DNA from: a virus
Virus record (IMG/VR): IMGVR_UViG_3300009514_000888
Span: 1 to 64,000 of that record
DNA: 64,000 bases
Strand: one strand, 5' to 3'
In this document: in pieces, positions 12,173-36,442 of the stretch
Layout: every line of letters starts with the position of its first letter
Numbering within the stretch: position 1 is the stretch's first letter
Translations under genes and position numbers: made by a program
The notes under the pieces: generated by a model
The model's input: only the letters and a program-made list of their open reading frames with translations
Database searches by the model: none
Told to the model about the DNA's origin: nothing

Positions 12173-12637
12173 ATGGCAAATGCGTCGAATATCCAAACCC
12201 TTGACGATGTAGTCGAGGCGCTGAGCAAGCTGGGATACTCAGCGAAGAAAACCGAGGACGGAAGCGCCGTTCTTACGGCGGTCGGCGGCCCGAAGCAGCC
12301 ATTCAGTACCGTGATTACTCAAGACGAAAATCAAACGCATCTGACGATCAATTGCCAGGTTGCCGCTTCTGGTCAAATCAACGAGGATGCCAAGGATGAT
12401 TTCTTGGTATCTGCGCTGGATGCCAATACTCGTCTTGCTCCTTTCTCGATAGCGCTGATTACGGCGAGCGATGGGCATGAGGGAGATGACGACTTCCCTA
12501 TAGTCCTGACAAATCGTATCCCTGTTGGCGATTTGTCCATTGGGGAATTGGAAGCCGCCATGAATAGTCTCCTTCGCGCCATCATGGGTGCCCGCGAGAC
12601 ATTGGAGGTTGGACTGGGCAAAGCCGTTACTGCTTAA
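12173..12637 (+). CDS. YbjN/CesT-like (type III chaperone fold) protein
   Basis: Size, ALDAN..LAPF and final amphipathic helix pattern; adjacent to pspA-like gene. Confidence 0.6.
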   Translation: MANASNIQTLDDVVEALSKLGYSAKKTEDGSAVLTAVGGPKQPFSTVITQDENQTHLTINCQVAASGQINEDAKDDFLVSALDANTRLAPFSIALITASDGHEGDDDFPIVLTNRIPVGDLSIGELEAAMNSLLRAIMGARETLEVGLGKAVTA

Positions 12638-19182: not shown

Positions 19183-21210
19183 TTGGCTATGATTTCTGAA
19201 CAAAAACTGATGTTTTGGATCGAAAAGGGTTACAATGTTTTGTTTAGTGGTGCCCACGGGGTCGGGAAGTCGTCGGTAGTCATTGAGGTTTTTAAGAAAG
19301 CTCGTCTGAAATGGGCGTATTTTTCTGGCGCGACAATGGACCCGTTTATTGATTTCGTCGGAGTCCCTGTCAAGGTGGATGATGAAGACGGTAGCCATAT
19401 CAAGCTCATCCTGCCAGAGCATATTCGACCGAATGAGATTGAGGCGATTTTTATTGACGAGTACAACAGGTGTTTGTCAGGGGATACAAAGATTTCCCTA
19501 TTAGATGGGCGATCTGTTCCTATTAAAGAGCTAGAATCAGAACCAGAATTCTTTGTATATTCCTTTGACTCAAAGAGCGGAAAAATCGTAGCGGGCAGAG
19601 GGCATAGTTGCCGAAAAACCGGGGTTAGACAAAAAATGGTGGAAGTTGAATTAGATAATGGAGAATCAGTAAAATGCACTCCAGATCATCCCTTTTTACT
19701 ATCCAATGGAGACTATGTTCTTGCTTTTAACCTGAGGGCAGGTGACATTCTAATGTCATTATATCGTCGTCTGTCTGAATGTGTAAAGAAAAACAAGTAT
19801 GTCATGGAGGGTTATGAAGAAGTATATCAGCCATTGGATGATGTATGGGAGTATACTCATGTATTATCCGATGATTACAATCTAAGAGTTGGAAAATACC
19901 GGAATTTCAAAGGCAGGATGAATCATACGGTCATATCTGTTAAAGAGTCTGAAAACGAAGATGTTTATGATATTACTGTTGATGATTATCATAATTTCGC
20001 TATCGAATCTGGGGTTTTTGTTCACAACTCCCACAAGAAGGTTCGCAACGCCACAATGGAATTGATTCAGTTTCGATCCATCAATGGGCGTCCGTTCCCT
20101 AATCTGAAGCTCATTTGGGCGGCAATCAATCCCGATAACGAAGCCGATGATCTGCCCAGTTACGATGTCGAGACGATGGACCCGGCGCAACGCGACCGCT
20201 TTCATGTCCATGTCACGATCCCTTACAAACCCATCCCCTCTTACTTCACCAGTAAGTATGGAGATGAGATTGGCAAGGCTGGCCTGCAATGGTGGGATGA
20301 GCTGCCTGATAAGGCAAAAGAAGAAGTTTCGCCGAGACGACTAGATTATGCTTTACAGATGTTTCAGGATGGTGGAGATATCCATGATGTTTTGCCGCGC
20401 ATCTCAAATCCGGCTCTACTGAAATTGCTGCTGCATACGGGACCAGCCGAAGAAAAACTTGATAATTTCATGAAGAATAAAGATGAAACTGGCGCAAAGT
20501 CGTGGTTGGCAGCGGACAATAATTTTGAATATGTCAAGACGACCATCTTCAAATTTGCCAAGTATCGTCGTTGGTTTGTCCCGCTCATGCTGACGGAACG
20601 TGTTTCGCAGTATATGGCATCTGATGCTCGTCTGAAATGGGAGATACTGGACGACATGATAAAGAAGGGCGTTTCCTCTGCTTACATCGATATGCTGAGG
20701 GAAATTGTACAATCGGATGTCGATGCCAAGCTTTGCGAGGATATTAGGAAGAAAATGGAAGCCGCTGGCCTGGACGTTCCAGCGATAAAGGCGATTCCTG
20801 TGTATCAGACTGGCAGCCCGCCAGCAGATTTCTCCGATAGACTGGGAAAATTGGCCACCTACTCAACGTCCAGTGCCAGGACCAAGACCTATCAACGGCG
20901 GGCGATGTATCAGCGGTTGCTCAAACTGGTGCCGCCGAGCATGACCGCGGCGCAGGCGTGGCAGGTCTTGGATATTTGTAACGGAATTATTGGGCCGTCT
21001 TACCATCATACCATTGATAAGTTTTTCCCCAAGGTAATTGCCATATCCAATGCGGCTATTATTCAACTGATCGAGCATCGAGAGCCGTTGAAAAATATAG
21101 AAGATAGACTGTCGGTCTTGAAGCGGATTAGGCTTTTACGTAAACGCAAGTGTGCGCCAGGGCTGACGGACATAGTTCGGTATTGTAAGTCTCGCAAACA
21201 AGCGCCGTAA
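19183..21210 (+). CDS. MoxR-like AAA+ ATPase with intein
   Basis: Walker A GAHGVGKS, Walker B IFIDEYNR, WAAINP, MDPAQRDRF. Confidence 0.85.
   Translation: MAMISEQKLMFWIEKGYNVLFSGAHGVGKSSVVIEVFKKARLKWAYFSGATMDPFIDFVGVPVKVDDEDGSHIKLILPEHIRPNEIEAIFIDEYNRCLSGDTKISLLDGRSVPIKELESEPEFFVYSFDSKSGKIVAGRGHSCRKTGVRQKMVEVELDNGESVKCTPDHPFLLSNGDYVLAFNLRAGDILMSLYRRLSECVKKNKYVMEGYEEVYQPLDDVWEYTHVLSDDYNLRVGKYRNFKGRMNHTVISVKESENEDVYDITVDDYHNFAIESGVFVHNSHKKVRNATMELIQFRSINGRPFPNLKLIWAAINPDNEADDLPSYDVETMDPAQRDRFHVHVTIPYKPIPSYFTSKYGDEIGKAGLQWWDELPDKAKEEVSPRRLDYALQMFQDGGDIHDVLPRISNPALLKLLLHTGPAEEKLDNFMKNKDETGAKSWLAADNNFEYVKTTIFKFAKYRRWFVPLMLTERVSQYMASDARLKWEILDDMIKKGVSSAYIDMLREIVQSDVDAKLCEDIRKKMEAAGLDVPAIKAIPVYQTGSPPADFSDRLGKLATYSTSSARTKTYQRRAMYQRLLKLVPPSMTAAQAWQVLDICNGIIGPSYHHTIDKFFPKVIAISNAAIIQLIEHREPLKNIEDRLSVLKRIRLLRKRKCAPGLTDIVRYCKSRKQAP
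19471..20028 (+). mobile_element. intein (186 aa) in the AAA+ ATPase
   Basis: DEYNR|CLSGDTKI...CTPDHPF...VYDITV..YHNF..GVFVHN|S. Confidence 0.92.
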
Positions 21211-21248
21211 ACGACCACCACTGCAACGGCGCAGGGCGTATATCATCA

Positions 21249-22547
21249 ATGGCAAAAGAAGTAGCGCCAACCAAACCGCTCCCCTCGCTAACGACCGAAG
21301 AGTATTTCGCGATCAGCCGCCAATTGGAGCAGTATCATGCTGTCTTCTATCGTGTCTGGGAGATGGGCAAGCCCATGTTCACCTACAGCATCGAACGCGC
21401 AGCAGTCGTGTTCGACAAGAAGGGCAATCTGCTTAGCTTCATCTTCAATCCCGATTTTTGGGAATCACTATCTCCCACTGAACGACTGTTTGTGATCTGT
21501 CATGAAGCATTGCATATCGTCCTGGAGCATGGCAAGAGGGCGAAGGATGCAGACGATAGCATGCGTAGCGCCCTCAATGTCGCGATGGACTTGGTGATAA
21601 ATCATGCCTTGATCAATCGATTCGGTTTCTCTCGCAAAGAGATCGATCCATATGGACAGTATTGCTGGATCGATACGGTTTTCAAAGATCGGAATCCAGA
21701 CAACATCCCGGACGATGAGTCTTTTTTCTACTACTATAACCGTCTTGATGTTGGGGCGATTACTACCGGCGTTACCGGCGGGATACTCGTAGATGAGCAT
21801 ATGTTTAGCGAGTCCATGAGCGACCTGATTCCCCTTCTGAATGACGAATTGACACCGGAAGAAAAGTCTGGCCTGCAAGGCTTGATCGAAAAGAATACGC
21901 CGCAGAATCAAACCGACGCCTCCGAAGGCAAGTCCAGAGGGACAGAAGCGGGTAATAGCTGGACGTTTGTGGATAATGAACCCGTCAAGAAGAAGCGAAA
22001 ATGGGAAACGGTCATCAAGGTTTGGAGTCGCAAATTTCTTAAGCAGGAATTCGATACGTTTGAGCATTGGGCGCAAGTTAATCGACGATGGGTGCTGCTG
22101 CCCTCGGATGTTATTCTACCTACTGAAATGGAGTTGCAAGAGAAAGAAGATCATGGCAAGGTGCAGGTCTATTTCTTCCTTGATACGTCTGGCTCATGCG
22201 CAGGTCTGTCAGCCCGCTTCTGGAATGCCACCAAGTCGTTACCCGAGCAGCGGTTTGACAAGCGACTGTTCTGCTTCGATACGCAAGTTTATGATGTAGA
22301 CGAGAAGATCGGAAAGCTCTACGGTTTTGGCGGGACAAGGTTTGATGTTCTTGAACATCGCATCCAACAGATCATGAAATATGAACAGACCAAATACCCC
22401 GAAGCCGTTTTTGTTTTGACCGATGGTTATGGCAACCAGGTTCAGCCGCAACGGGTTGAAAGATGGCATTGGTTCTTGACGGAGCGTAGTGCCACGCATT
22501 GCATACCCAAAGGCTGCCATGTCCATCCTCTCAAGGATTACGAGTGA
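21249..22547 (+). CDS. metallopeptidase-like (HExxH) plus vWA domain protein (DUF2201-like), MoxR partner
   Basis: FVICHEALH, FFLDTSGSC and FVLTDGY motifs. Confidence 0.8.
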   Translation: MAKEVAPTKPLPSLTTEEYFAISRQLEQYHAVFYRVWEMGKPMFTYSIERAAVVFDKKGNLLSFIFNPDFWESLSPTERLFVICHEALHIVLEHGKRAKDADDSMRSALNVAMDLVINHALINRFGFSRKEIDPYGQYCWIDTVFKDRNPDNIPDDESFFYYYNRLDVGAITTGVTGGILVDEHMFSESMSDLIPLLNDELTPEEKSGLQGLIEKNTPQNQTDASEGKSRGTEAGNSWTFVDNEPVKKKRKWETVIKVWSRKFLKQEFDTFEHWAQVNRRWVLLPSDVILPTEMELQEKEDHGKVQVYFFLDTSGSCAGLSARFWNATKSLPEQRFDKRLFCFDTQVYDVDEKIGKLYGFGGTRFDVLEHRIQQIMKYEQTKYPEAVFVLTDGYGNQVQPQRVERWHWFLTERSATHCIPKGCHVHPLKDYE

Positions 22548-22553
22548 TTAAGA

Positions 22554-23075
22554 GTGATTATTCTCCGCAAAGTTGTGTCTGGTGGACAAACCGGCGCAGA
22601 TCGAGCTGGGCTGATTGTTGCCAGAGAGTTCGGTTTGGAAACTGGAGGCTGGTTGCCCAAGGGCTGCCAGACGGCAGCAGGTCCACGGCCTGATCTCATA
22701 GAAAAATACGGAATGCAAGAGCACCCGTCGCCCAATTATGCCGCCAGAACATACGCCAATGCTAAGGATTCGGATGCCACGATCCGTTTGGCGATGGATT
22801 TCGGGTCCAGAGGCGAAATTTGCACGCTTAATGCGATCAAACGCTACCACAAGCCTTGGACCGACATAGACCTAGCCAAGCCAAGGCCGCCGGTCGAGGT
22901 CGCAGAATGGCTCACAGAGCATCAGGTGGGTATCTTGAATGTGGCAGGTAACAGCGAAAAGACATTCTCCGGGACTTTCGATCTTTGCACCATATATTTG
23001 AGGTCGGTGCTGTCCGCATTGGGGCTGGATTCAAGAGTAGGGAACCAATGGGACGATATTTTGGAAGGAATTTGA
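22554..23075 (+). CDS. SLOG superfamily protein (cpYpsA / 'putative molybdenum carrier' type)
   Basis: VSGGQTGADRAGL, RT.AN..DSDAT and LNVAGN motifs. Confidence 0.8.
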   Translation: MIILRKVVSGGQTGADRAGLIVAREFGLETGGWLPKGCQTAAGPRPDLIEKYGMQEHPSPNYAARTYANAKDSDATIRLAMDFGSRGEICTLNAIKRYHKPWTDIDLAKPRPPVEVAEWLTEHQVGILNVAGNSEKTFSGTFDLCTIYLRSVLSALGLDSRVGNQWDDILEGI

Positions 23076-23099
23076 TTCCAGAGGTTGAATGGTGAGGAT

Positions 23100-23210
23100 A
23101 TGCATGCTAGGGTAGACATCATGAACGTCAACGGCCTTCACAACCAGTATTTCACTTCGTATTGCTCTAGTAGCAGTTGCTCATGTAGCAACGGCTATTA
23201 TTCGAGCTAA
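23100..23210 (+). CDS. putative Ser/Cys/Tyr-rich leader peptide (36 aa)
   Basis: MHARVDIMNVNGLHNQYFTSYCSSSSCSCSNGYYSS*; GGTGA SD; TAA ends at 23210 and the tRNA-like sequence starts at 23211. Confidence 0.6.
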   Translation: MHARVDIMNVNGLHNQYFTSYCSSSSCSCSNGYYSS

Positions 23211-23313
23211 GACCTATTTACAACTTGGCTTCGAATACTCGGCCTGCTATCCGCCTGGGGCGGGGTCCGTCTGCAAAACGGATGCAATAAGGGTTCGAAT
23301 CCCTGGTGGGTCT
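23211..23313 (+). tRNA. tRNA-Cys(GCA)-like with ambiguous or expanded 5'/D region
   Basis: Anticodon arm TCCGT-CTGCAAA-ACGGA; T arm AGGG-TTCGAAT-CCCT; 3' GTGGGTC pairs with GACCTAT (23211), or more weakly with the strand near 23242; U73. Confidence 0.6.
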
Positions 23314-23362
23314 ATGAAACTCCAGCGATCTTTGACAAGTAAATATTCTAGTTATGACAGAT

Positions 23363-23438
23363 GCCCGGCTGCCCGAGTCTGGACAAAGGGAGCGGACTGC
23401 AACTCCGCTAATCGTGGGTTCAAATCCCACGCCGGGCT
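23363..23438 (+). tRNA. tRNA-Cys(GCA)
   Basis: GCCCGGC/GCCGGGC acceptor, GCGGA-CTGCAAC-TCCGC anticodon arm, GTGGG-TTCAAAT-CCCAC T arm, U73. Confidence 0.92.
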
Positions 23439-23647
23439 ATATGAAAGCGCACAGGAAAGAGTTCGGCGTATCATCTGGATACATTCGACAATGTAACGCT
23501 ACTGATCGAAGCATTTGATGATCTGGATGACGCCGTAGACTTCGTGGTTCATAACAGATACAAGGATCGCATCTCCGCGAGGGACTGATTAGGTGTATCT
23601 CGTTGATCGGGACGGAAACATCGTTAAGAAGTATTCGGTGAAATAGC

Positions 23648-23732
23648 GGAGAGCAAATCGTCGAGGCGACGACCCCGCTTCGAAAACGGGTGGAGCCTAA
23701 CAAGGCTTGCGGGTCAGGACCGCTGCTCTCCT
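23648..23732 (+). tRNA. tRNA-Ser(CGA), atypical T loop
   Basis: GGAGAGC/GCTCTCC acceptor, loop TTCGAAA, long variable arm, T arm GCGG-GTCAGGA-CCGC. Confidence 0.7.
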
Positions 23733-23738
23733 TTTGAT

Positions 23739-23829
23739 GGAAGATAGGCGACTGTTGGTTCGTCGCGATAGTTTTGAAAACTGTTCCGCATGAAAGATGG
23801 CGGCAAGGGTTCGATTCCCTTATCTTCCT
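23739..23829 (+). tRNA. tRNA-Ser(TGA)
   Basis: GGAAGAT/ATCTTCC acceptor, loop TTTGAAA, long variable arm, AAGGG-TTCGATT-CCCTT T arm. Confidence 0.85.
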
Positions 23830-24512
23830 GTCCCCAGTTTGGAATTGATGATATTTATGATGATGTCTAGGAACTTTTGTGCTTTTTGAGGCTTGAAATA
23901 CTTCATGCTAGAAATGTCGATGATGCAGAGTTCGATTTGGTTTTCTAGACATGCTTGGAATTTGCGATGGTCATTGTTGCGAACTTGAGACAGTTTTTCT
24001 TTCCAAAAATAGGTTCATAATGGAAGATGCCATTAAGCTCAAAGGCCAGGAACATGCTGGGAATGAATATGTCTAACTCGGAGTTAATATGTTCTTTTTC
24101 GTTGAAACGAATATCGAGGTTTGGGTATTTGGCTTTTAGTTTCTCTTCTATCCATGCCTCGATCTTGGACCGTCGATGACCATGCTTGCGGTTACGGTTG
24201 TTATAACTGCCTGAGCAAGACCTGCTGCAAAAATGGTTTCCGCTTTTGGACTTGGCGAGCTTAGATGGTGTGCGATCAAAAGATTTGCTGCATTCAGTGC
24301 ATGAGACTGTTACTCTATTTTGCCGAAACTTATCTCTGCATTTAATAGAGCAAAAGCGGTTGGAAGCGTTTTGAGATTTTGGATTGTTGTCACAGGACAG
24401 ATTTACAGTGAAATGGTTATTACAATAGGAGCAGGTTCGGGTAATCATGGTTGGCATACATAGCAATTCGACCAGTATGCTTAAAAACCTTTTTCGATTC
24501 CCTTATCTTCCT
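23810..24512. repeat. 20-bp direct repeat TTCGATTCCCTTATCTTCCT (23810-23829 and 24493-24512) flanking the endonuclease gene
   Basis: Exact duplication of the tRNA-Ser(TGA) 3' end. Confidence 0.9.
23820..24466 (-). pseudogene. zinc-finger plus PD-(D/E)xK (Vsr/DUF559-like) homing-endonuclease-like gene, frameshifted near 23994-24002
   Basis: CxxC...FCSxxC repeats and ELDIFIP..AFELNGIFHYEPIFG. The alternative frame continues KLSQVRNNDHRKFQACLENQIELCIID...GTGR* to a TAA at 23822-23820. Confidence 0.7.
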
Positions 24513-24514
24513 TT

Positions 24515-24607
24515 GGACAGGTAGCGATCCCCGCGGGAGGCTGTAACCCTCTTGCCATGATAATTAGCGGGGTGGTCGGCATAGGGGTTCGATTCCTCCG
24601 CTGCCTA
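24515..24607 (+). tRNA. degenerate tRNA-Tyr(GTA)-like
   Basis: GGAGG-CTGTAAC-CCTCT anticodon arm, GGGG-TTCGATT-CCTC T arm, very short D loop, imperfect acceptor. Confidence 0.5.
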
Positions 24608-24623
24608 TTATGGGTGCTAAATT

Positions 24624-25115
24624 ATGAGTGAAGACCAAAACAAATATGCTGTGCCTATTAAGGCCGACGATATCCTTTGGAACATCCACGCCAAGCCTGT
24701 CAAGGTTGGCACCACCCCGCCCATCGGCGTAAAGCTCGAATGGGGCTGGACAGCAGGCAAGACAGAGGAAGAACTGGCAAGCTATGCCCATGATGCGCCA
24801 ACGGGCAGCGCGTCAGTCACAACAACGCTAGACTTGGCGATTGAGTTGAGAAATAAACTGAACAAGATCATCAAGGAGTATAATGTAGAGCCGGTTGACC
24901 AATGCGATAGATGTAAGGAAGAGATTTTCCCTTACGAAGAATCGGAAGATACCGCAGGGGGGACGGTTCACACAGACCAGGAGAGATGCGATCAGTTGAA
25001 GAAACTGAATGAGTCGAGCGCGAAACTGCAAAAGTTGTTTGAAGAACATCCAGAACTGTTGAATCTACAACCAGAGATAGGGACAGAAGAGGAAGAGGAG
25101 AGTCCGTTTGATTGA
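24624..25115 (+). CDS. hypothetical protein
   Basis: 163-aa ORF. Confidence 0.65.
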   Translation: MSEDQNKYAVPIKADDILWNIHAKPVKVGTTPPIGVKLEWGWTAGKTEEELASYAHDAPTGSASVTTTLDLAIELRNKLNKIIKEYNVEPVDQCDRCKEEIFPYEESEDTAGGTVHTDQERCDQLKKLNESSAKLQKLFEEHPELLNLQPEIGTEEEEESPFD

Positions 25116-25500
25116 CATAGGACATAGAACAAAGGAAGCAGTCATGATTCCAGCAATTGGCAAAAGCACTTTGCTCGGTTTTCGGTATCAACTGGTTGGC
25201 TTTCTTTTCATGGACAACCCGATGAATTGTCACGGCAAGGTCGAAGTTACTTTTTTTAAGCAAGACAGTAGCAGTGACTTGTACTTGATTTGCCTTAGTG
25301 AAGTCACGAAAGATCAAGCCAAGACATATGCGGAGATTCTGAAAAATAAGTTGGGAGAGATGGTTGCGGCCGAAGAAGTAATTCCGTATGTTCAGCGCAG
25401 TTTGGGAGACGTGGAGTATGAGGCTTTTCAGGGCTTGATGGAAGCATCTTTCGCTTTGAAAATAGAATGGAGTAGCCCGACTGCCAGCAAAGATAGGTAA
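25108..25500 (+). CDS. hypothetical protein (start may be ATG 25145)
   Basis: ORF with AAGGA RBS. Confidence 0.55.
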   Translation: MIDIGHRTKEAVMIPAIGKSTLLGFRYQLVGFLFMDNPMNCHGKVEVTFFKQDSSSDLYLICLSEVTKDQAKTYAEILKNKLGEMVAAEEVIPYVQRSLGDVEYEAFQGLMEASFALKIEWSSPTASKDR

Positions 25501-25576
25501 TGTTGAAAACATAGCAGCCTATTGACGAGCAGGCATCGTTTTCTCTGTATGCTAAAGCATTGGGAAGGCTTTCTCG

Positions 25577-25999
25577 ATGACGACGTTCCAGATTAACGGG
25601 CAAACGATTGAGTTCGATGAGACTCTTTCTTATGCCGATTTTTGGGTCGATGGATCAAGTTATGTGTTTGCTTGGATTCAATGGGACAAAATACTCACGG
25701 CATTATCAGAGGGCAGAGAATGGGACGCAGGAATACGCAGGTTTGTTAAATTGCTTTCCAGATGGGTTCACGAGGCTCCCAGGAAGCGTGTCTATCGCGG
25801 CTTGAAGATGTCTGGCGTAACGGTGGTGAGCTCTGAATTTTTCTTTGAGCAGCAGGGAGGGGATGAGATGATTAACTCACTGGAAAACACTGGCAAATTT
25901 GCGGTTAGGCTCCTGGAGGTTTACGACGAGAGTCCAATGGAACCGATAAAACATGAAGGGAGAAACCCGATTCGCGTAGATCAATTAAAGATAGAATAG
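25577..25999 (+). CDS. hypothetical protein
   Basis: 140-aa ORF ending at the first base of the tRNA. Confidence 0.6.
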   Translation: MTTFQINGQTIEFDETLSYADFWVDGSSYVFAWIQWDKILTALSEGREWDAGIRRFVKLLSRWVHEAPRKRVYRGLKMSGVTVVSSEFFFEQQGGDEMINSLENTGKFAVRLLEVYDESPMEPIKHEGRNPIRVDQLKIE

Positions 26000-26089
26000 G
26001 ACAGGTGGCCGAGTGGCTGAAGGCAACGGTTTGCTAAACCGTCGTAGGGGGTATTCCTCCTACCGCGGGTTCGAATCCCGCCCTGTCCG
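25999..26089 (+). tRNA. tRNA-Ser(GCT)
   Basis: GGACAGG/CCTGTCC acceptor, ACGGT-TTGCTAA-ACCGT anticodon arm, long variable arm, GCGGG-TTCGAAT-CCCGC T arm, G73. Confidence 0.95.
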
Positions 26090-26115
26090 TTGTCCAGGAA
26101 GCGCATAATATTTTC

Positions 26116-26382
26116 ATGCCAGAAAAAGAAAGGCAACCTCCCCTGAACGACGGCGACCTGTTCCGAGTGTCAGCTCGGCGCAATGGGAAATGGAATGCAT
26201 ACGTTGGTCGCGTTATTAGCAAAGCAGAGCAGACATTTGAGACTGTTTGGATGACTGACTTCGTCTATGATACGGAAGCAGAAGCCGAGCAGGCTATAGA
26301 AGACGCAGTCAACAAGGCGCGGGCGAAAGAATGGGGTTGGAATGACAATATAACCGGGAAGGTTGATCAAGACGGAGAGTAA
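26116..26382 (+). CDS. hypothetical protein
   Basis: ORF in the + strand run. Confidence 0.5.
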   Translation: MPEKERQPPLNDGDLFRVSARRNGKWNAYVGRVISKAEQTFETVWMTDFVYDTEAEAEQAIEDAVNKARAKEWGWNDNITGKVDQDGE

Positions 26383-26724
26383 ACTAGCGAGGCGCTAGCT
26401 CCGGTTGGAAGCCGGATGGAGCTGAAATACGCTTACGGATCGTGACCGTTGCTCTCCTTTTTCATTACTTTTGGACAGGATATGGCCATGATGAAAGAAG
26501 AAGATATCCAAACCGCTGACGATCTTCTGTCCTACATTCTTGAGTTTCAGGATGTGATATATGTGCGAGAGCAAGTCAATGGGAAATGGGGATCGTTTAG
26601 CCTGGAAGAGCTGCCTGATGATTTGCGTCAGAATCATGTGAATAGATTTTTGGACGAAGGGCGCATTCCTTTTCGGCTCAAGCGAGACGCTGAGCAATCA
26701 GGCGATTAATACTCCGGCATTCTG

Positions 26725-27276
26725 TTGAGCGGCATATATACTGACATGATTGTTCAAGAACTAGAACAAGAGGGTCACGGTTGCCCAACGTCCTGGAATT
26801 TCTTCACGGACGGCGGGCGTGCTGCATATATTCGATATCGTGGCGGTCAATTCAATCTCAACGTTCGCGCCATCGAGGGCGATCCTCAGCCCGAAGACGG
26901 CGAAAGCCTAGATTGGTTTCACATTTACAATGCCACTATCGGCGGCTGTTTTGACGGCTTCCTAGATTGGAATGTTGCTTACGAGCATATCAAAGACCTG
27001 GATGTCAAGAAAGAAATTGCTCTCGCTGTGGTAGCAATAGATGAGCATAGTCGGAAGATGCATGGGAGCGCCGAGTATCGCAGGAATTACTGGTACAAAT
27101 GGATGCGAGGCATCTGGGAGGGTATGGCGAAAACTACCAGAGAAATGAATGAGTTGAATAAACCTGGTTCGGGCGGTCATAATTATGTGCCACCCGAGGA
27201 TCAGATCGAAGAGGAAGCCATTAAACATGCCGATAAGAAAGAGGCTCAGTGGCAAGTCGAACACGATGGAAATTGA
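26725..27276 (+). CDS. hypothetical protein
   Basis: ORF in the + strand run. Confidence 0.6.
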   Translation: MSGIYTDMIVQELEQEGHGCPTSWNFFTDGGRAAYIRYRGGQFNLNVRAIEGDPQPEDGESLDWFHIYNATIGGCFDGFLDWNVAYEHIKDLDVKKEIALAVVAIDEHSRKMHGSAEYRRNYWYKWMRGIWEGMAKTTREMNELNKPGSGGHNYVPPEDQIEEEAIKHADKKEAQWQVEHDGN

Positions 27277-27555
27277 AGTCATACAATTCTCCCTCCCGTA
27301 TGGCAGGCAAAAATTAGTTATATTTGATGCCCCAGATGCTTTGGAGCCCAAGTACTTATCTATACAACGTTGTGGCTGTCGCTTGACTGCCGAGGCATTG
27401 ACGACAGGACTTATCTCTTTGACCATTGAAGAGCCTAATCTGGGCGACTATATGATTCAGTTGGTGCAGAGAGTTGAGGAAATTGAGCAAACGTTCGCGG
27501 AGATGTTGGATAAATTTGATGAAAGAATGTTTGATCGCTGGGTTTCGGTGCAAGA

Positions 27556-28062
27556 ATGGAACGAATAGACAGGAATATACAGTTTCGAATTTTTAGTCGC
27601 CAACTCGCTGAAATTGAATCCGTGGTGAATGCCAATGCGATGATGTCGCATGTTTGGATCAGTATTCATAATACGACTGATCCTGATTTGCCCATTCCGC
27701 ATCAAAACGAGATGTGCCGAGAGGTTCTGACCCTAGGTTTTGATGATACGGATGTTGCGGGATGGATTGTCATGGGGCAAGAGATGCAACTCATGACAGA
27801 AGATCAGGCGGACCAGATTCTACAATTCATCGAAAAACACCTGGGCCATATCGGGATGATTTGCGTTCATTGTGAGGCGGGCATTTCTCGAAGCGCAGCC
27901 ACGGCAGCTGCGCTGAGCTTATTGATCAATGGACATGACTCCAATATACAGAATAGCGGCTGGTACTGCCCAAATGCGCATGTCAAAAGTTTGATTCTTC
28001 AGCGCGGAAGTGATTTGCGAACGCGATCTATCGAGCTGGGTTTCTGTTCAGACGATATATAG
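27556..28062 (+). CDS. protein-tyrosine-phosphatase-like (CX5R) protein
   Basis: L.FDD and VHCEAGISRSAA motifs. Confidence 0.85.
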   Translation: MERIDRNIQFRIFSRQLAEIESVVNANAMMSHVWISIHNTTDPDLPIPHQNEMCREVLTLGFDDTDVAGWIVMGQEMQLMTEDQADQILQFIEKHLGHIGMICVHCEAGISRSAATAAALSLLINGHDSNIQNSGWYCPNAHVKSLILQRGSDLRTRSIELGFCSDDI

Positions 28063-28279
28063 TCTATGTGGAAAATGAGATGCAAAGCAATCGCTTCTCA
28101 CAAGCGGTCTGCGTGATCTTATTGCAGGCGTGTTTGCGGAGGTATGGGGTCTGGGGGTGTTGAAAAGGCCAACCAATAGAACAATTCTGTTTGGATTTCG
28201 ACCATGCTTCTGGACGGAAGTTGGATGGTTTGGGTCACTTAAGTCAAGGATTTCTCGATGATTTTTCGAAACACTACCT

Positions 28280-28738
28280 ATGTATTGGCGAAAAATCGAG
28301 GCAGAGATCATCGGTATGAACCGTGTCTATAAACTCCGTAATAACCGGGAATTGCGAGAGTGGATTCAGGAGAGACGGAAAGTCTATATACAGGTCGTCC
28401 GGGTCAATGCCCATTTTATCGAAGAATTTGCCGGTAGCGATGTAATACAGGGGATGCTTGAGTTTCGTCCTTTAATCCCTGATTTGAGAGAAATGTCCAG
28501 GGATGCCAGGATCGTTTTGCGCCGTCTTGATATGCTGCTCGAAATCACTTCAACTCATAACAGTTTTACGGAATTTGATACGCACAAGAGCAAGGCGGAA
28601 TCGATTCACGAATCCTCGATTCGCTATCGTTCCAAATGGAATGATATTATGTCTTTGTCTGAAAAGGCGCATCGTATTCTCAATAATCAACCGGAGTCTG
28701 ACGATAAAGAAGAGGAATCTCCGCCGTTCGCAGATTAA
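28280..28738 (+). CDS. hypothetical protein
   Basis: 152-aa ORF. Confidence 0.55.
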   Translation: MYWRKIEAEIIGMNRVYKLRNNRELREWIQERRKVYIQVVRVNAHFIEEFAGSDVIQGMLEFRPLIPDLREMSRDARIVLRRLDMLLEITSTHNSFTEFDTHKSKAESIHESSIRYRSKWNDIMSLSEKAHRILNNQPESDDKEEESPPFAD

Positions 28739-28744
28739 GGCTTA

Positions 28745-29164
28745 TTGAGAAGGATGGACCGCATGCCCAGACACCAATTCGCAATTCGTAAAGTAAACAC
28801 ATATCTTATCGACGACCCTGGTCCGCCTCGACGAATTGAGGAAAATGTCAAAGTGGGAGAATGCTCGCTCGATGTCCCAGAAGATATAGACCTTTCAGAC
28901 CTGCCAGATTGTTCAACTGACAAGACGTACACTGGCTACGGTTTCGTATTGGCGCAAACCTTGGACGGCCAAGTGGTTCCGCAAGAGTTACCATTTATGA
29001 TCGATGCAGAATCAATTGAAGAAGCTTTTAGCAAGTTTGAGTCTGGTATTGAGTCTAAAATTCGTGAATTAGAGAAGCAGAACCAGGGCGTTAAGCCTCC
29101 GACGCCGCAAGAATTGGCGGCTTTGTCCAGGGGGAACAATAGCGGCGGCATAATCGTGCCATGA
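28745..29164 (+). CDS. hypothetical protein
   Basis: ORF coupled to the next gene by an ATGA overlap. Confidence 0.6.
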   Translation: MRRMDRMPRHQFAIRKVNTYLIDDPGPPRRIEENVKVGECSLDVPEDIDLSDLPDCSTDKTYTGYGFVLAQTLDGQVVPQELPFMIDAESIEEAFSKFESGIESKIRELEKQNQGVKPPTPQELAALSRGNNSGGIIVP

Positions 29165-29538
29165 GCGATTTGCAGAAATTACAATTGGTTGAGCATCTGT
29201 TCAAATTGAAGAGAGTTGAGCCTGAGTGCGAGGCTTGGGTTCGTAATGCATTCCGTCTGTTGCAGGTGAAATTTCCCGATCTTTCGTTGGAGTTCTTTGA
29301 AGACCTATATACGACTTATGGACCGAGTTATCTTATCGAAAAATGGAAAGAGTTGCATTTGGAGTATTTCTCGGAAGGCGAACTCCGCAAGATGAATGAG
29401 TTCTGGGCATCGGATGTGGGCAAGAAATTGGTAATAGGAGATTATCCAGCCGAACACATCTCGGTATCTGTCCAATGGGCGCAGTCGCTGGACAGCCGTT
29501 GCGAATCAGCAGAGAGACGAAGGAGACAACCATGTTAG
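29161..29538 (+). CDS. DUF2059-like protein
   Basis: YFSEGELRKMNEFWASDVGKK resembles the DUF2059 core. Confidence 0.6.
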   Translation: MSDLQKLQLVEHLFKLKRVEPECEAWVRNAFRLLQVKFPDLSLEFFEDLYTTYGPSYLIEKWKELHLEYFSEGELRKMNEFWASDVGKKLVIGDYPAEHISVSVQWAQSLDSRCESAERRRRQPC

Positions 29539-30021
29539 ACACGATTGATCGTTTGCGATGTCACTGGAGTCGAAATCTCACTATTTACTCAGACATCATT
29601 GATGACTTCTGCCATGCGAGCGGTTATTCACTTTGTCAAGAAGACCTGCGTATGATTCATTCGTTACGACAGAGCCAAAGGAACCTCAGCATCTTGGCTA
29701 GAAAAGCAGAAATTCTGATGCTCGCCTGCCAAGATTCAATCGCAAGAGCGTCTACATTGACAGCATCACTTCTGGAGGCTGTTAAGGGCTATCGCGATGA
29801 TCTGATCGCGTCCGACCAGAAAGCCGCTATATTGCTGGCCCGTATGCAGAATCGCACGTGATTCTCCAGCATTAATCGCCTTCCCGCTATAATCTAGAGG
29901 GAAGGAACCCGCCTGCCAATGCTGCTAACACGCAAGCCCTTATATGTCAATAAGTTAGCAGTTATGGCGGTCTAGTATGGTTGTTTTGCGTGAATACTGC
30001 TATAATCTTTGGGAGTATCCA

Positions 30022-30777
30022 ATGAGCAGATCATTGAGCATTACGTCTACCTGGGGCTTGCAGGAATCCATCCGCCGAAGATGGGGCGAGAGAAAAGCCC
30101 CGCCTTCGCAGCCAAGGGGTGCCAAGAAAGCAACGAAACGGGTGTTGCTTGTTTTGGCCAAGGACGAAAGCCGGAGTATTCAGTCTTACCGAGTGGATAT
30201 TCAGCGTTGTATACAGGACATCATTCGGGGATGCTCGCTGGAGAAGGGGGCTGATGATTACAGGCTGATGCATATCTCTTTTGGCGACAATATACAGCAA
30301 CATCATGACTTCAAGCCGTTGAATCAGTGCCAACCAGATGATTATGTTGGACAGGAAAGAAAGTCCCGTTCGACTGCTTTGTCTGATGCGATTGTTTACG
30401 CCGTTAACTCACTGGTGGTAAAATCAGATTACATGAAAAACGATGATGTTAGCGGTATCGTGTTGGTTCTGAGCGACGGGAGATCGACCAAGTCATCGTA
30501 TAACCGGGAATACTTAAGGCGAATTATCACTAAGTCCGCCTCTAGCTCATCTCTTCGTTCCCTGAAAGTCATTTTAATCGGCGTCGGCGATGACCCGTAT
30601 GCGCAGGAGGAAATGGAAGAATTCTGTCGCGAGGCAGGGATCGCTCAATACGTATCGCTTCGTGATGTAAATCATGAGACAATTGCTATGCTGATATCCT
30701 GTGTGCACCGGAACATCATGTCGCAACGTCACGCCATGCATATCGGCAGGGAGCCCAGGAAGTTGTGCGTCGAATAG
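30022..30777 (+). CDS. vWA-like domain protein (degenerate MIDAS)
   Basis: LVLAKDESRS, STALSDA, LVLSDG and ILIGVG motifs. Confidence 0.7.
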   Translation: MSRSLSITSTWGLQESIRRRWGERKAPPSQPRGAKKATKRVLLVLAKDESRSIQSYRVDIQRCIQDIIRGCSLEKGADDYRLMHISFGDNIQQHHDFKPLNQCQPDDYVGQERKSRSTALSDAIVYAVNSLVVKSDYMKNDDVSGIVLVLSDGRSTKSSYNREYLRRIITKSASSSSLRSLKVILIGVGDDPYAQEEMEEFCREAGIAQYVSLRDVNHETIAMLISCVHRNIMSQRHAMHIGREPRKLCVE

Positions 30778-30798
30778 ACAAAGCCCTTACTCTACAGA

Positions 30799-30838
30799 AG
30801 CCCTCGGATGGCATTGGTCGTCCGAGGGCTTTTTTTTT
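30799..30838 (+). terminator. intrinsic terminator
   Basis: AGCCCTCGGA...TCCGAGGGCT followed by a T run. Confidence 0.85.
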
Positions 30839-30898
30839 AAGATAAGTGCTTGAGATTGTTGCATAATTGGACTGGTTCGTTACGGAAGGATACCGCCC

Positions 30899-31408
30899 AT
30901 GAAAAAGCCTACTGATGTATTGACTACGGGGCAGATTGCCAATCTTTGTCGTTGCGCCCCCAGGACTGTTGCCAAGTGGATTGACGACGGCGCACTCAAG
31001 GGTTTCCGTCTTCCAGGCTCCAAGGACCGCCGCGTAGTCCTGGTGCAATTGTTTTGCTTTATGCGCGAGCGCGGCATGCCGCTGGAATGGCTCGCGTCTA
31101 TGACAGATATTCAGGAAATCAAGAGATATTGCGACATTCACATGATTGAGGATACTGTTGAGATGGAGCCCGGACAGGCTCCGAAGGCCGTGTTGGATGT
31201 AGTTGGGGAAATTCTCATCTCGCTAAGAGAGGTCTTTGGGAAGGTGGTTACGATTAGCAAAAGGCGAGGGACTAATGCTCCGATATTAACTATAGCTGTT
31301 GAGGGAACGACCCAAACAATCACGTTGCAGCGAGAGCATGTATCGGCGATAATACCGATTCTTACTTGTTTTATGAATACTGGGCAATTGACAGAGTCCA
31401 TGGCCTAA
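30899..31408 (+). CDS. excisionase/MerR-type HTH DNA-binding protein
   Basis: LTTGQIANLC.CAPRTVAKWID.G.LKGFRLPGS.DRRV. Confidence 0.8.
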   Translation: MKKPTDVLTTGQIANLCRCAPRTVAKWIDDGALKGFRLPGSKDRRVVLVQLFCFMRERGMPLEWLASMTDIQEIKRYCDIHMIEDTVEMEPGQAPKAVLDVVGEILISLREVFGKVVTISKRRGTNAPILTIAVEGTTQTITLQREHVSAIIPILTCFMNTGQLTESMA

Positions 31409-31420
31409 AGCGAGGACAAG

Positions 31421-32029
31421 ATGGCGGACAATGATATTTATATTGGGAAGATTTGTGCTTCGTCGGACAATACCTTAGCTGTCGTAACGTCCAAAAAGCG
31501 AATACCGATCAAGGGGATGAGATGGTTTGGATTCACACTTGACGGATATCCTTGGAAAAGCCGCAATCCCAGGGTGGTCGCAGATAGCCTTAACGAATAC
31601 ATTCATCAAAAGATTGACGAGAGAGCCTTCTCTTTGCGAGATATGTATACGGACAAACTTGCTGTTGAAAAAATCAGGATACAGCGTGAACGCGATCAGC
31701 AGTTGGTAGATGCGAAAAAAGAGTGGGATAAAGAAAATGAGAAATGCATTGTTGAGGCAGCTGGCGAGATGGCGAAGATCAAACAAGAGATCGCTAATCT
31801 ACAAGCAGAGTATGCAGGCAGCGACGGCGCATGCAGCCGCTTGGTAGAACGGCAGATCAACGAAGAGCGGAAAGCTTACTTGGGCATTTTGCGCAGTTTG
31901 CTTAAGAACGCAAACAAATCTACTACAACGGCCATTGAGAGAGCGGTCGTACGCATTGACGAAAGAGCGAAAGAGCGTAAACAGAAAAGATTGGAGTCTC
32001 TAAATGCACCAGATACAATGGGTGTATGA
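31421..32029 (+). CDS. hypothetical coiled-coil protein
   Basis: 202-aa ORF. Confidence 0.6.
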   Translation: MADNDIYIGKICASSDNTLAVVTSKKRIPIKGMRWFGFTLDGYPWKSRNPRVVADSLNEYIHQKIDERAFSLRDMYTDKLAVEKIRIQRERDQQLVDAKKEWDKENEKCIVEAAGEMAKIKQEIANLQAEYAGSDGACSRLVERQINEERKAYLGILRSLLKNANKSTTTAIERAVVRIDERAKERKQKRLESLNAPDTMGV

Positions 32030-32056
32030 TGGCTATCTTTGGGTATTTAGCGGGAC

Positions 32057-32094
32057 GAAGGCAGGAAACCCCACCCTTGCGGTAGGATAGTTCA
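32057..32094 (+). mobile_element. solo IS200/IS605 right-end-like remnant
   Basis: GAAGGCAGGAAACCCCACCCTTGCGGTAGGATAGTTCA closely resembles the end at 64-96. Confidence 0.5.
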
Positions 32095-32111
32095 ACATAT
32101 GGGGAGAGTCG

Positions 32112-32486
32112 ATGCGATACAAGTATGCGAATACGCTAAAAGCAGACTTGTATTTCTATAAGGCTCATGTCGTAAGCGTGTATGACGGGGATACGCTGAC
32201 GGCTCGAATCGATCTTGGTTTTGATACCAGCGTTCAGCATAAGCTTCGACTATCTGGCATTGATACGCCCGAGATACGGGGCAGGGATCGAGTGCAGGGT
32301 CTAAAGGTCCGAGACATAGTTCGGGAACTGGTCTTGGGCAAAGATATATTTGTGGAAACAGTTCAGGACAAACAAGGCAAATATGGAAGATATCTGGCGG
32401 TTGTTTGGTATGGCAATGGCAATGGCAATAGGTATTACTGTCTAAATGAGTTCCTTCTGGAAGAAAATCTGGCAAGGCCCTACTGA
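32112..32486 (+). CDS. thermonuclease (SNase) family protein
   Basis: VYDGDT, RLSGIDTPE and KYGRYLA motifs. Confidence 0.9.
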   Translation: MRYKYANTLKADLYFYKAHVVSVYDGDTLTARIDLGFDTSVQHKLRLSGIDTPEIRGRDRVQGLKVRDIVRELVLGKDIFVETVQDKQGKYGRYLAVVWYGNGNGNRYYCLNEFLLEENLARPY

Positions 32487-32929
32487 TCGCCTGGTTTGTC
32501 GCAAGATCGAATGTATTGTATGGTGCCTTTTGATGACGGCCGGCTTTGCTATTTTTGGATGGCTTTGCTTCGAGTTAATCAAAACTCTGGTTCAAGCCAT
32601 GTGTCATAAACTGCCGATATGATAATGTTGCTCATCGAGCGGAGAAGCCAGTGACTACCATCAAGCAAGATTTCAATGTGGTTCCGCGACAGGACGTGGA
32701 GCGCCTAGCCAAAGTGATAGGCGCTAAATCTGCTGTTGCGCGGGCGCTGAAAGATGCTGATAGCCATAATGGTGATGTCCGCTTTTGGGTGGGGCGTCAT
32801 AAGCGCCAATATTCAATTCTGGTAGAGAAAGTCCTCTCAACAGACGAAGATTGTTGAAATTTTCGCTTTCTTCAAACTCCGGCAACATTCTAGAGCGAGT
32901 ATTCTCCCATAAGGACAGAATCGGAAGGC

Positions 32930-34531
32930 GTGAATATGACCCAGACAACCGCACTCGACCAGCCGCATGCCCTTGCGTTTTACCACGAAGGCAAGGTCCG
33001 CGTTCATCCTGACGCATCCCAGGATGTCAAGAGCGCGGTTCTTACCTTTATTGACACTGTGCTGACGGCCAGCGGACAGGCGACGTATTACAACACCAAG
33101 AAAGAGCAGTATCGCGCGCTCTACGAGGTTCATGATGCGATTTTTCGCGTCAATCGCGGACTGTATGGCGCGATGCTGTGTCTGCCTGGCATCATGGACA
33201 AGAGCCGTCAAATTGGTTTTACCAAGCTCCTGGAAGATAACAGTGAGGGCAGGGAAGCATCGTTCTTAACCCCAGAACAGGAAAATTGGGTTATTGCCTA
33301 TCTGTCCAGAAATATTAGACCCAGCGCGCTGTTCCGGCAGTTCGTGGAAATTCGCAATAAGAGGGTGAATAACAGCCGCGTGCGCAAGTTCATTTTTGGC
33401 GCGATCCTGCCGAGTAATTCGCTGCCGCTTTGGTCGGTCAAGTATCGATCCAAGGTTCGCGCTGCGCTAGAACATGCTTGGAGCCGGCAAATGGCTTCTG
33501 CGATTCGTTGTATTCTGAGCAAACCTGCCCAGTCGAGAACAGATAAGGAAAGGTCCATCCTTGATAAGAACATTGATCGCTGGGTACGGCGCGGCAATAG
33601 CGAGCTGACCCCCGACGAGGTTTATCAGTGTATTTGCTTTGTTTTGGGCGGGAAGATGGGTAGCAAGTATACCGTCAAACTGTTGATGCAGCGGCTTGAT
33701 GCCCGAGAGAGCCTGGACAAGGGCAAGGACTTACCGCCGGAAGTCCTGGAAGGCATTCGAAGTCGCTATCACAAGGATGCTGCTAAGGGCGCGGTCTTGG
33801 CGGTCACTAAGGATACGATGACCAATACCCAGAAGCGCCGCGTACAGCGCTCGGCCAAGGAAGCGAATGTTGATGTTAAAATGGACCCGCTCAAGCAGGA
33901 CATTATTCCGCTGTATGTTTACGCGCTTGAAATGGGGATGACTCGCGAAATCTTCCAGGCCCTCGACACGAAGGCTCGCAAAATCGCGCAGACAATCCCT
34001 GTTCGATATAGGCGCGTCGGCATTGTGGTGGATAACTCCGAGTCGATGTTCGGCACGGATCAGGCGAAGCGCAAGCCGTTGGCTATCGCCCTGGCTATGC
34101 GAGACATCCTTGCGGCGTCCGCGACAGAATATGCCTTCGCCATCCCATCGCAGGGACAGTTCGATGACTTCGGCATGACAACGTCGCGCGGCGACACGAG
34201 TCTTGCCGAGCCTCTGATTCGAGTAATCGAGGAAGGGGTTGATGCGGTCTACCTGATTACTGATGGATACGAGAACAGTCCGGCAGGCAGGACCGGCGAA
34301 GTTATTGAACGTTTGAGGGAAATCGGCATTGAGGTTCCTATCTTCCAGGTGTCGCCTGTTGTGTCCGTCGAGGCGGCAGGTATTCGTGCGCTTTCGGATC
34401 GTGTCGCTCCGATGCCGGTTGCGAACCCAGCAGGCATCGGCTTGTCGATGATTCGAGCAACGATTACGAGCGATGTCGAGACGGGCATCGAAGCGCTTTT
34501 GGAAACCACGCGACCGCTACTGGAGGGTTAA
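32930..34531 (+). CDS. Ro60/TROVE-like protein (helical N-terminal region plus C-terminal vWA)
   Basis: 533 aa; vWA MIDAS-like IVVDNSESM, T(S)LAEP and YLITDGYEN at Ro60-like positions; basic helical N-terminal two thirds; a Y-RNA-like array lies downstream. Confidence 0.55.
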   Translation: MNMTQTTALDQPHALAFYHEGKVRVHPDASQDVKSAVLTFIDTVLTASGQATYYNTKKEQYRALYEVHDAIFRVNRGLYGAMLCLPGIMDKSRQIGFTKLLEDNSEGREASFLTPEQENWVIAYLSRNIRPSALFRQFVEIRNKRVNNSRVRKFIFGAILPSNSLPLWSVKYRSKVRAALEHAWSRQMASAIRCILSKPAQSRTDKERSILDKNIDRWVRRGNSELTPDEVYQCICFVLGGKMGSKYTVKLLMQRLDARESLDKGKDLPPEVLEGIRSRYHKDAAKGAVLAVTKDTMTNTQKRRVQRSAKEANVDVKMDPLKQDIIPLYVYALEMGMTREIFQALDTKARKIAQTIPVRYRRVGIVVDNSESMFGTDQAKRKPLAIALAMRDILAASATEYAFAIPSQGQFDDFGMTTSRGDTSLAEPLIRVIEEGVDAVYLITDGYENSPAGRTGEVIERLREIGIEVPIFQVSPVVSVEAAGIRALSDRVAPMPVANPAGIGLSMIRATITSDVETGIEALLETTRPLLEG

Positions 34532-34535
34532 GGTT

Positions 34536-35567: not shown

Positions 35568-35582
35568 AATTGCCCCCGGTAG

Positions 35583-35619
35583 CTCCTCCTGGCGGCTTCG
35601 GTCGCTAGGGGGAGTTTTT
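35583..35619 (+). terminator. intrinsic terminator
   Basis: CTCCTCCTGGCG-GCTTCGGT-CGCTAGGGGGAG followed by a T run. Confidence 0.75.
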
Positions 35620-35667
35620 CTTGAGGCATAAATTGAAGAAAATGCAGAAAATTGACGCCAGGATGCA

Positions 35668-35695
35668 TTGACATTAAAGGTTCGGACGTTACTAT
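35668..35695 (+). promoter_or_regulatory. sigma70-like promoter upstream of the ncRNA array
   Basis: TTGACA-16 nt-TACTAT, ending about 15 nt before ncRNA unit 1. Confidence 0.65.
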
Positions 35696-35709
35696 GACGA
35701 ATAAGAAAG

Positions 35710-35773
35710 CTGGGGACTTGAACGTCAATACCGCGATCTTCGGATAGTTGGCATGACCTTTAACCTACCCCAG
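35710..35773 (+). ncRNA. Y-RNA-like unit 1 (small insert)
   Basis: CTGGGG/CCCCAG terminal stem; GGACTTGAACGTCAATACCG ... TTTAACCTACC. Confidence 0.6.
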
Positions 35774-35845
35774 ATACTATTTTGTCGCAAGTGCGATGTA
35801 GATGAACGCATGACAAGTGAATAATGGTGGTTTTGGGATGCCCAA

Positions 35846-35948
35846 CTACTAACAGAGGGTGGGGTCAGGACTTTCGCGTCAATTCCGTGATTAGACAATT
35901 TCACACCCTTTGACCCGCCCCCTACCTGATCCTATCCCCTGTTAGTAG
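35846..35948 (+). ncRNA. Y-RNA-like unit 2 (hairpin insert)
   Basis: CTACTAACAG/CTGTTAGTAG stem; GGACTTTCGCGTCAATTCCG ... TTTGACCCGCCCCCTACC. Confidence 0.65.
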
Positions 35949-35953
35949 AACAT

Positions 35954-36105
35954 AAACGGGAACTCTTGCGTCAATACCGAGTAGGCATTATAAACCCCAG
36001 GATACGGGTTCGAATCCCGTTCGGCGCTTTGCGTAGTTTAGTACGCGCCGATAGCTCAATTGGCAGAGCAGGAATCTCAACGTTGACCCAAACCTTATCC
36101 CGTTT
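35954..36105 (+). ncRNA. Y-RNA-like unit 3, YrlA-like (permuted tRNA-like insert)
   Basis: AAACGGGA/TCCCGTTT stem; conserved core; order is T arm, loop-closed acceptor stem (TCGGCGC/GCGCCGA), D arm. Confidence 0.75.
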
Positions 36106-36115
36106 TTTAATACTG

Positions 36116-36440: not shown

Positions 36441-36442
36441 AT

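Follow-up and report, generated by a model that had tools for sequence, protein, structure and literature searches.

A codon-matched leader reading frame ahead of a phage tRNA block: a candidate relative of attenuators in which the terminator is missing

Why phages carry tRNA genes, and when these genes are expressed, are open questions, for which codon-usage compensation, host tRNA decay, and anticodon-nuclease escape have been proposed as answers. A locus in the IMG/VR virus record IMGVR_UViG_3300009514_000888 puts these questions in a specific form: a short open reading frame (ORF; positions 23121–23210), written largely in Ser, Cys, and Tyr codons, stands ahead of tRNA genes and tRNA-like sequences for the same amino acids. 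Does this ORF serve as a leader that senses the tRNAs encoded behind it? The stretch analyzed here (the window) comprises the first 64,000 nucleotides of the 186,298-bp record, with dense plus-strand coding in the standard genetic code; the leader ORF, its hairpins, the promoter-like pair, the conserved motif, and the tRNA block described below all lie on the plus strand. The reading favored here, on which confidence is evenly divided, is that the ORF is the codon-matched leader of the Cys/Ser/Tyr tRNA block, belonging to or derived from a class of attenuators found in other large phages, and that it is a working sensor with a non-canonical read-out.

The leader ORF comprises 29 codons plus a TAA stop codon (23208–23210) and ends 30 nt ahead of the first tRNA-Cys gene, on the same strand. 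Judged from the sequence, the ATG at 23121 appears to be the most plausible start, with AGGG 8 nt 5′ of it; the in-frame upstream starts at 23100 (ATG) and 23085 (TTG) are less plausible because the purine-rich stretches before them are too near (GAGGA with a spacing of 1 nt, and AGAGG with a spacing of 0 nt, respectively). The N-terminus, M-N-x-N, is akin to the M-K/N-... of other phage leaders, and Pfam gave no match for the peptide. The putative regulatory run is made up of the final 17 sense codons (23157–23207): TCG TAT TGC TCT AGT AGC AGT TGC TCA TGT AGC AAC GGC TAT TAT TCG AGC, encoding S Y C S S S S C S C S N G Y Y S S. A preliminary description of the locus had counted 15 of these 17 codons as Ser, Cys, or Tyr, and this is confirmed (Ser 9, Cys 3, and Tyr 3), with the frame open as far as the TAA. 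The codons sampled—TCG, TCT, TCA, AGT, AGC, TGC, TGT, and TAT—provide a cognate for every downstream anticodon class. The run contains an in-frame tandem duplication of a 15-nt (five-codon) unit at 23163–23192 (TGC TCT AGT AGC AGT / TGC TCA TGT AGC AAC), which a repeat search returned as 14-nt copies, 86% identical, at a 15-nt spacing. Over all six frames of the 186-kb genome (372,000 codon positions), at least 15 Ser/Cys/Tyr codons out of 17 occur at only two places, the second being a Ser-rich coding repeat of AGC/TCG/TCA units at the contig end (genome positions 186100–186298, outside the window).

The tRNA block begins with tRNA-Cys(GCA) #1 (23241–23313), called by ARAGORN. Its acceptor stem has three G-U pairs and its discriminator is U73; its best Rfam match is the tRNA-Sec model (34.2 bits, under the gathering score), and its cloverleaf is the minimum free energy (MFE) structure at −29.2 kcal/mol, but with a z score of only −1.1. 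The preliminary description correctly had the leader stop end at 23210, but its first tRNA-like sequence, starting at 23211, gives way to the start at 23241 on which ARAGORN and Infernal agree. Further along are a canonical tRNA-Cys(GCA) #2 (23363–23438; ARAGORN; Rfam tRNA, 56 bits), tRNA-Ser(TGA) (23739–23829; ARAGORN; Rfam, 40.5 bits), tRNA-Ser(GCT) (25999–26089; ARAGORN; Rfam, 60.7 bits), and tRNA-Ser(GGA) (26374–26458), which was called by ARAGORN and had no match in an Rfam search covering its coordinates. Two other sequences are degenerate or atypical tRNA-like sequences. In the Ser(CGA)-like one (23649–23735), the T loop (GUCAGGA) is aberrant and the anticodon stem contains a C-A mismatch; the MFE fold of this sequence is cloverleaf-like (z −2.6), and it was neither called by ARAGORN nor matched by Rfam. 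The Tyr(GTA)-like one (about 24521–24605) has a good acceptor stem and an anticodon loop, CUGUAAC, with no normal D arm; it too was uncalled by ARAGORN, scored 17.7 bits (E 2.6) in Rfam, and folds with a z score of −0.13. Thus, of the tRNA set listed previously, the two Cys(GCA) genes, Ser(TGA), and Ser(GCT) stand, Ser(CGA) and Tyr(GTA) are rejected by both programs, and Ser(GGA) had been missed. A Zn-finger/endonuclease-like ORF (23945–24466, minus strand) lies between the 3′ end of tRNA-Ser(TGA) (23810–23829) and an exact duplicate of that end (TTCGATTCCCTTATCTTCC; 24494–24512), an arrangement that suggests homing into a tRNA gene.

The fit between leader and block was scored in an isotype-match scan: for each of 69 tRNA-cluster starts, taken from all fetched loci, the preceding 350 nt were searched for the 12-codon window that best matches the downstream isotypes. 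The leader of the window (p = 2e-8) and that of the relative L007 (p = 4e-8) were the top two, far above the other cluster starts. The codon/tRNA match in the window is therefore far beyond chance.

L007, which is the same phage as L011, L012, and L264, is the nearest syntenic relative with the region: a DUF2201/VWA protein 54% identical to that of the window is followed by cpYpsA and then by tRNAs. The ten tRNAs of its block are Cys, Tyr, four Leu, and four Ser; the tRNA-Cys(GCA) (L007:12456–12539) is 84 nt long and seems to possess a long variable arm, an unusual feature in a tRNA of this isotype. The gap before the tRNAs contains, in order, TTGAAG-N16-TATAAT (10/12 consensus matches), six bases, an ATG, a 25-codon ORF, and a 12-bp terminator with a T-tract. 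The 13-codon core of this ORF, LSSSLSCLYLSLS (L S S S L S C L Y L S L S), provides every one of the ten tRNAs with a cognate codon (TTA, TTG, CTC, CTA, TCA, TCT, TCG, AGT, TGC, and TAT). L007 thus has both Leu tRNAs and Leu codons, whereas the window lacks Leu tRNAs and its leader contains a single Leu codon. In 7.6 million codon positions, runs of at least 13 Leu/Ser/Cys/Tyr codons were encountered at eight independent places, of which six are near-homopolymers and one is off-frame inside a gene; a run of this kind in L015 was rejected as a leader, being off-frame within a membrane-protein gene. AGGGCTTTG, near the end of the L007 ORF, is exactly complementary to the terminator's 5′ arm, and an upstream segment pairs with AGGGCTTTG in turn. 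The consequences of ribosome stalling were calculated with a masking model—an equilibrium partition function in which a 28-nt ribosome footprint is held unpaired while the A-site position is varied. The terminator probability was 0.93 in the free RNA, 0.00–0.03 with the A site on codons 9–14 (Leu Ser Cys Leu Tyr Leu), and 0.95 with the ribosome at the stop codon. In this model, L007 behaves as a textbook attenuator with the classical 1:2 / 2:3 / 3:4 logic.

The isotype-match scan also pointed to three distant huge phages, and tRNA regions were fetched from five complete phage records of 224–498 kb (L273–L289). Each of these phages has 33–77 tRNAs, grouped into blocks that contain a single isotype or a small number of isotypes (such as six Leu, three or four Glu, four Pro, or three Thr). 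Many of the blocks have no matched leader ORF, but some do. A Leu/Ser-rich ORF precedes seven Leu tRNAs; an Ile-Val-His-Trp ORF precedes Trp, Trp, Val, His, Ile, Ile, Val, and Met tRNAs (L276/L230); a Thr/Gly/Ser/Cys/Met ORF precedes Gly, Thr, Met, Ser, and Cys tRNAs (L277/L228); an Ile-Val-His ORF precedes Val, His, Ile, Val, and Met tRNAs (L280); a Gln/Ser ORF precedes three Gln and then Ser tRNAs (L281); and an Ala/Thr/Asp ORF precedes Ala, Cys, Asp, and Thr tRNAs (L289/L181). To avoid circular selection, units were also defined by structure only, as an ATG-initiated ORF of 10–60 codons and a hairpin with a T-run, with a tRNA within 130 nt. In the resulting 18 units, the isotype-match statistic was 39.1; permuting the blocks gave 1.9 ± 6.3, and the observed value was not reached in any of 20,000 permutations. 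The leader of the window, which lacks a terminator, lies outside this set. Thus, leader composition tracks downstream tRNA identity across large phages, and the change of leaders with the tRNA set, for which the preliminary description had proposed looking in related phages, is found here and in L007, where Leu is added. In the masking model, the terminator opens in a stalling-dependent manner in L280, L281, and L289 and partly so in L277 and L276, with no terminator switching in three other units. The mini-genes of the related phages are probably switches that turn tRNA genes on when the codons in question are read slowly. Moderately Glu-rich, leader-like ORFs were also seen at Glu blocks of three huge phages (L279:15901–16034, minus strand; L283:14329–14454, minus strand; and L275:1660–1800, plus strand). 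Two of the three share the C-terminus ERQVH, and the stop codon lies in a small conserved hairpin (CGTCAG...CTGACG) that is followed by a long hairpin without a T-run—a weak hint that terminator-less designs recur.

For the class as a whole, a promoter is proposed to drive an ORF of 14–40 codons written in codons read by the downstream tRNAs; a ribosome stalled on these codons would free an antiterminator, allowing RNA polymerase to read through the terminator into the tRNA genes and so providing tRNA on demand. This arrangement resembles the multivalent leader attenuators of enterobacteria (thrL, sensing Thr/Ile; the ilvGMEDA leader, sensing Ile/Leu/Val; and trpL, hisL, leuL, and pheL), in which the controlled genes are immediately preceded, on the same strand, by a short ORF rich in the sensed codons, and one leader can sense several amino acids. 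L007 shares with these attenuators the full set of alternative hairpins and a U-tract terminator. Unlike those leaders, however, the phage elements have tRNA genes rather than biosynthetic enzymes as targets, and sample individual synonymous codons matching individual anticodons. The state of the tRNA pool is also known to regulate synthetase genes, both in pheST (pheM leader) attenuation in E. coli and in the T-box riboswitches of Gram-positive bacteria, the latter binding uncharged tRNA directly and needing no translation. The common point is the control of translation-apparatus genes by the tRNA pool; the genes regulated in those systems encode synthetases rather than tRNAs, and the window contains no T-box-like element according to Rfam (E up to 10 over 23080–24650, and E up to 1 over 20000–40000). 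Phage tRNAs can replace host tRNAs cut by anticodon nucleases, as with PrrC and T4, Retron-Eco7 PtuAB and the tRNA-Tyr of T5, and anticodon-loop variants. Such systems offer a rationale for sensing the depletion of specific tRNAs, and nothing in the window ties the leader to a nuclease. A full-text literature search, the coverage of which is incomplete and not proof of absence, returned no published account of leader-peptide control of tRNA genes, in agreement with the earlier remark that no attenuator of this kind has been described. The window itself is set apart from canonical attenuators because both terminator and antiterminator are missing; its leader probably works like, and probably derives from, such an attenuator, and is not a proven member of the class.

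What the window has in place of a terminator is a pair of hairpins. Hairpin A (23170–23198; −12.3 kcal/mol, z −3.5), also found as an inverted repeat, lies inside the codon run; its core (23176–23192; tail GGCTATTATT) gave a weak terminator-like scan match with 6 pairs, 3 of them GC, and its outer helix and the base of hairpin B compete with each other. Hairpin B (23193–23244) folds at −18.9 kcal/mol with a z score of −4.26, and 0 of 200 shuffles fold as well. Its 5′ arm contains the last four sense codons (TAT TAT TCG AGC) and the TAA, whereas its 3′ arm reaches into tRNA-Cys #1, ending on the four bases (GGCC) with which that gene begins. The pairing of 23199–23211 with 23224–23237, noticed at the outset, is exact and forms part of this larger hairpin. 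The 3′ arm also holds GGCTTCGAAT (23227–23236), 90% identical to the T-loop region of tRNA-Cys #1 (GGGTTCGAAT; 23291–23300), and the last codons of the leader could also pair with the true T loop because TTCGAA is palindromic; a degenerate tRNA beneath the leader ORF was considered for this T-loop-like sequence and rejected, no supporting stem being found. In the masking model, hairpin B is wholly melted with the A site on codons 24–30, and hairpin A is lost with the A site on codons 16–29.

The sensing half of the element is intact in the window, with an open ORF that reads as a codon "checklist" for every downstream anticodon and with a run enlarged by the in-frame 15-nt duplication. As long as a ribosome stayed on the final codons (Tyr Tyr Ser Ser), hairpin B would be kept open; the 5′ acceptor strand would then be free, so that tRNA-Cys #1 could fold and be processed, or the polymerase could proceed. 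A ribosome that terminates and leaves would allow hairpin B to close. This scheme presumes that the leader is translated, that a promoter serves it, that tRNA output responds, and that there is a trigger, which may be starvation, host shut-off, or anticodon nucleases.

Several observations weigh against a working sensor in the window. No U-tract follows hairpin B, and the terminator scan, the masking model, and the search for structure-defined units revealed neither an intrinsic terminator nor an antiterminator pairing from the leader ORF to the tRNAs, the only terminator-like site found there by the scan being a weak 6-bp hairpin within the ORF. In the masking model, the window shows no clean stalling-dependent switch: stalls on codons 13–23, which include most of the Ser/Cys/Tyr codons, leave hairpin B in place and the tRNA acceptor stem unformed, so that only the last four to six codons would work in the preferred mechanism. 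The earlier proposal that stalling switches on the tRNA operon is supported for the class and for L007, but has no visible read-out in the window. Furthermore, the promoter-like pair ahead of the leader, TTGAAT-N17-TAGGGT (23085–23113), read from the sequence, is weak (7/12 consensus matches) and was not flagged by the promoter scan. Its geometry would place the transcript start at or near the ATG at 23121, leaderless as in L007, where the promoter-like site has the same relative place. The locus also shows signs of decay or flux, in that the Tyr-like and Ser(CGA)-like sequences fail the detectors and an endonuclease-like gene sits at a tRNA 3′ end.

The position of a conserved 18-nt motif, TCTTTGACAAGTAAATA (23329–23346; family consensus TCTTTGACAAGTGAATAG, also written TCTTTGACAAGT(G/A)AATA), adds to these points. 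It lies 17 nt upstream of tRNA-Cys #2 and occurs once in the genome containing the window, and it recurs in the tRNA regions of many unrelated large-phage contigs, 8–50 nt ahead of tRNAs and, in many cases, immediately behind an attenuator terminator (L007:12420–12437, L276:3680–3697, L277:2582–2599 and 12312–12329, and, on the minus strand, L289, L282, L284, and L285). The motif directly follows the terminator in L007 and L230 but follows tRNA-Cys #1 in the window, in which the space of the L007 terminator is occupied by hairpin B and a tRNA gene; this placement suggests that the window has undergone rearrangement. The motif itself was considered as a sigma-70 promoter and rejected, there being no −10 element at 16–18 nt from TCTTTGACAAGT..., and the tRNA of some phages starting 8–18 nt after TTGACA; it may be a phage-specific promoter or processing signal.

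No relative more than 54% identical at the anchor gene and covering the leader region was found in the collections searched. A cpYpsA protein search of viral contigs gave no close relative, the best homologues being at most 62% identical and in unrelated contexts; an exact leader 25-mer had no match in viral contigs; and blastn of the phage collection returned tRNA matches only. The contigs of a relative, P0124, stop 40 nt past cpYpsA, ahead of the leader position; those of P0125 and L013 are too short to include the leader region; and P0242, a closer relative as judged by a downstream protein (68% identical), is represented by a 6-kb contig that begins beyond the tRNA region. L039 and L046 have other tRNA sets after the same anchor gene, with no convincing matched leader.

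Could the leader, then, be a relic? It may have descended from an L007-like leader and lost its terminator and antiterminator by rearrangement, with no control left, a candidate event being the arrival of a tRNA-Cys copy between the leader and the conserved motif. This possibility is doubtful but has to be taken seriously, with the missing terminator, the motif that trails a terminator in L007 and L230 but tRNA-Cys #1 here, the degenerate neighboring tRNA-like sequences, and the mobile endonuclease-like gene flanked by a duplicated tRNA 3′ end all in its favor. However, the ORF is intact, and its codons fit the present tRNA set—there is no Leu run, unlike in the relative—which suggests adjustment after the sets diverged. 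In addition, the codon run has been lengthened in frame, and hairpin B is strong and is positioned precisely over both the leader's stop codon and the 5′ end of the tRNA. A more specific form of the working-sensor reading, rather unlikely as matters stand, is that the window represents a second type of read-out, namely a terminator-less, translation-gated switch of tRNA folding or processing, in which ribosome dwell time would decide the folding of the 5′ acceptor strand and cleavage by RNase P.

Hairpin A offers another route to a read-out, in that its core, extendable to the whole of 23170–23198, together with GGCUAUUAUU might form a terminator inside the ORF that is blocked by a ribosome on the Ser/Cys codons. 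The scan flag, the stability of the extended form, and the loss of the hairpin under a ribosome on codons 16–29 agree with such weak intrinsic attenuation; the core stem of only 6 pairs, 3 of them GC, the interrupted tail U's, and the failure to find an antiterminator partner, do not, and a closely coupled ribosome would always mask a hairpin within the ORF, making this explanation improbable. That the run is an untranslated by-product of the tandem duplication and of the sequence needs of the two hairpins is more improbable still: the run does contain the duplication and does lie in both hairpins, and the promoter and ribosome-binding signals are weak, but one of only two such runs in the genome falls directly before tRNAs for exactly those amino acids, and the same match recurs with other amino acids in relatives. 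The least probable explanation, and a very improbable one, is a functional Cys/Ser/Tyr-rich small peptide unrelated to tRNA control, such as a metal-binding peptide or a precursor of the RiPP type (ribosomally synthesized and post-translationally modified peptides). Thiopeptides and linear azole peptides have core peptides rich in Ser and Cys, which the C-terminal part of the leader may resemble; yet no modification-enzyme family is present among nine neighboring products, Pfam does not recognize the peptide, and a peptide function leaves unexplained why the leaders of relatives are rich in the amino acids of their own tRNAs (Ile/Val/His/Trp, Thr/Gly, Gln, or Ala/Thr).

The genes upstream of the leader are an intein-bearing ATPase-like ORF (19183–21210; intein splicing domain PF14890 in Pfam, E 1.3e-19), a DUF2201/VWA metallopeptidase-like gene (21249–22547), and, directly before the leader region, cpYpsA (22554–23075). 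Inteins at the ATPase-like gene are also found in the relatives L010 and L171. The terminator scan placed no terminator between cpYpsA and the leader ORF, so that transcription could read through from cpYpsA; translational read-through of the cpYpsA TGA into the leader ORF, which is in the same frame, is disfavored, since cpYpsA is full length compared with its homologues. Three further tRNA-region features lie downstream in the window: a Y-RNA-like (YrlA) match (35997–36072; 33.5 bits, sub-threshold), a tRNA with a six-base anticodon loop (36155–36225), and a clean tRNA whose anticodon, CTA, is that of an amber suppressor (36443–36515), the last also being present in L007 (L007:19476–19547).

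If the proposed control is real, these phages would gauge decoding speed codon by codon and supply the tRNAs that are in short supply, a form of feedback that is known for amino-acid and synthetase genes. The leaders would then reveal, from sequence alone, how a phage groups its tRNAs into regulatory units. Within this class, the window would be an atypical member with its sensor intact and its terminator gone, and may represent either a locus caught in the course of decay or an indication of a different read-out, at the level of tRNA processing.

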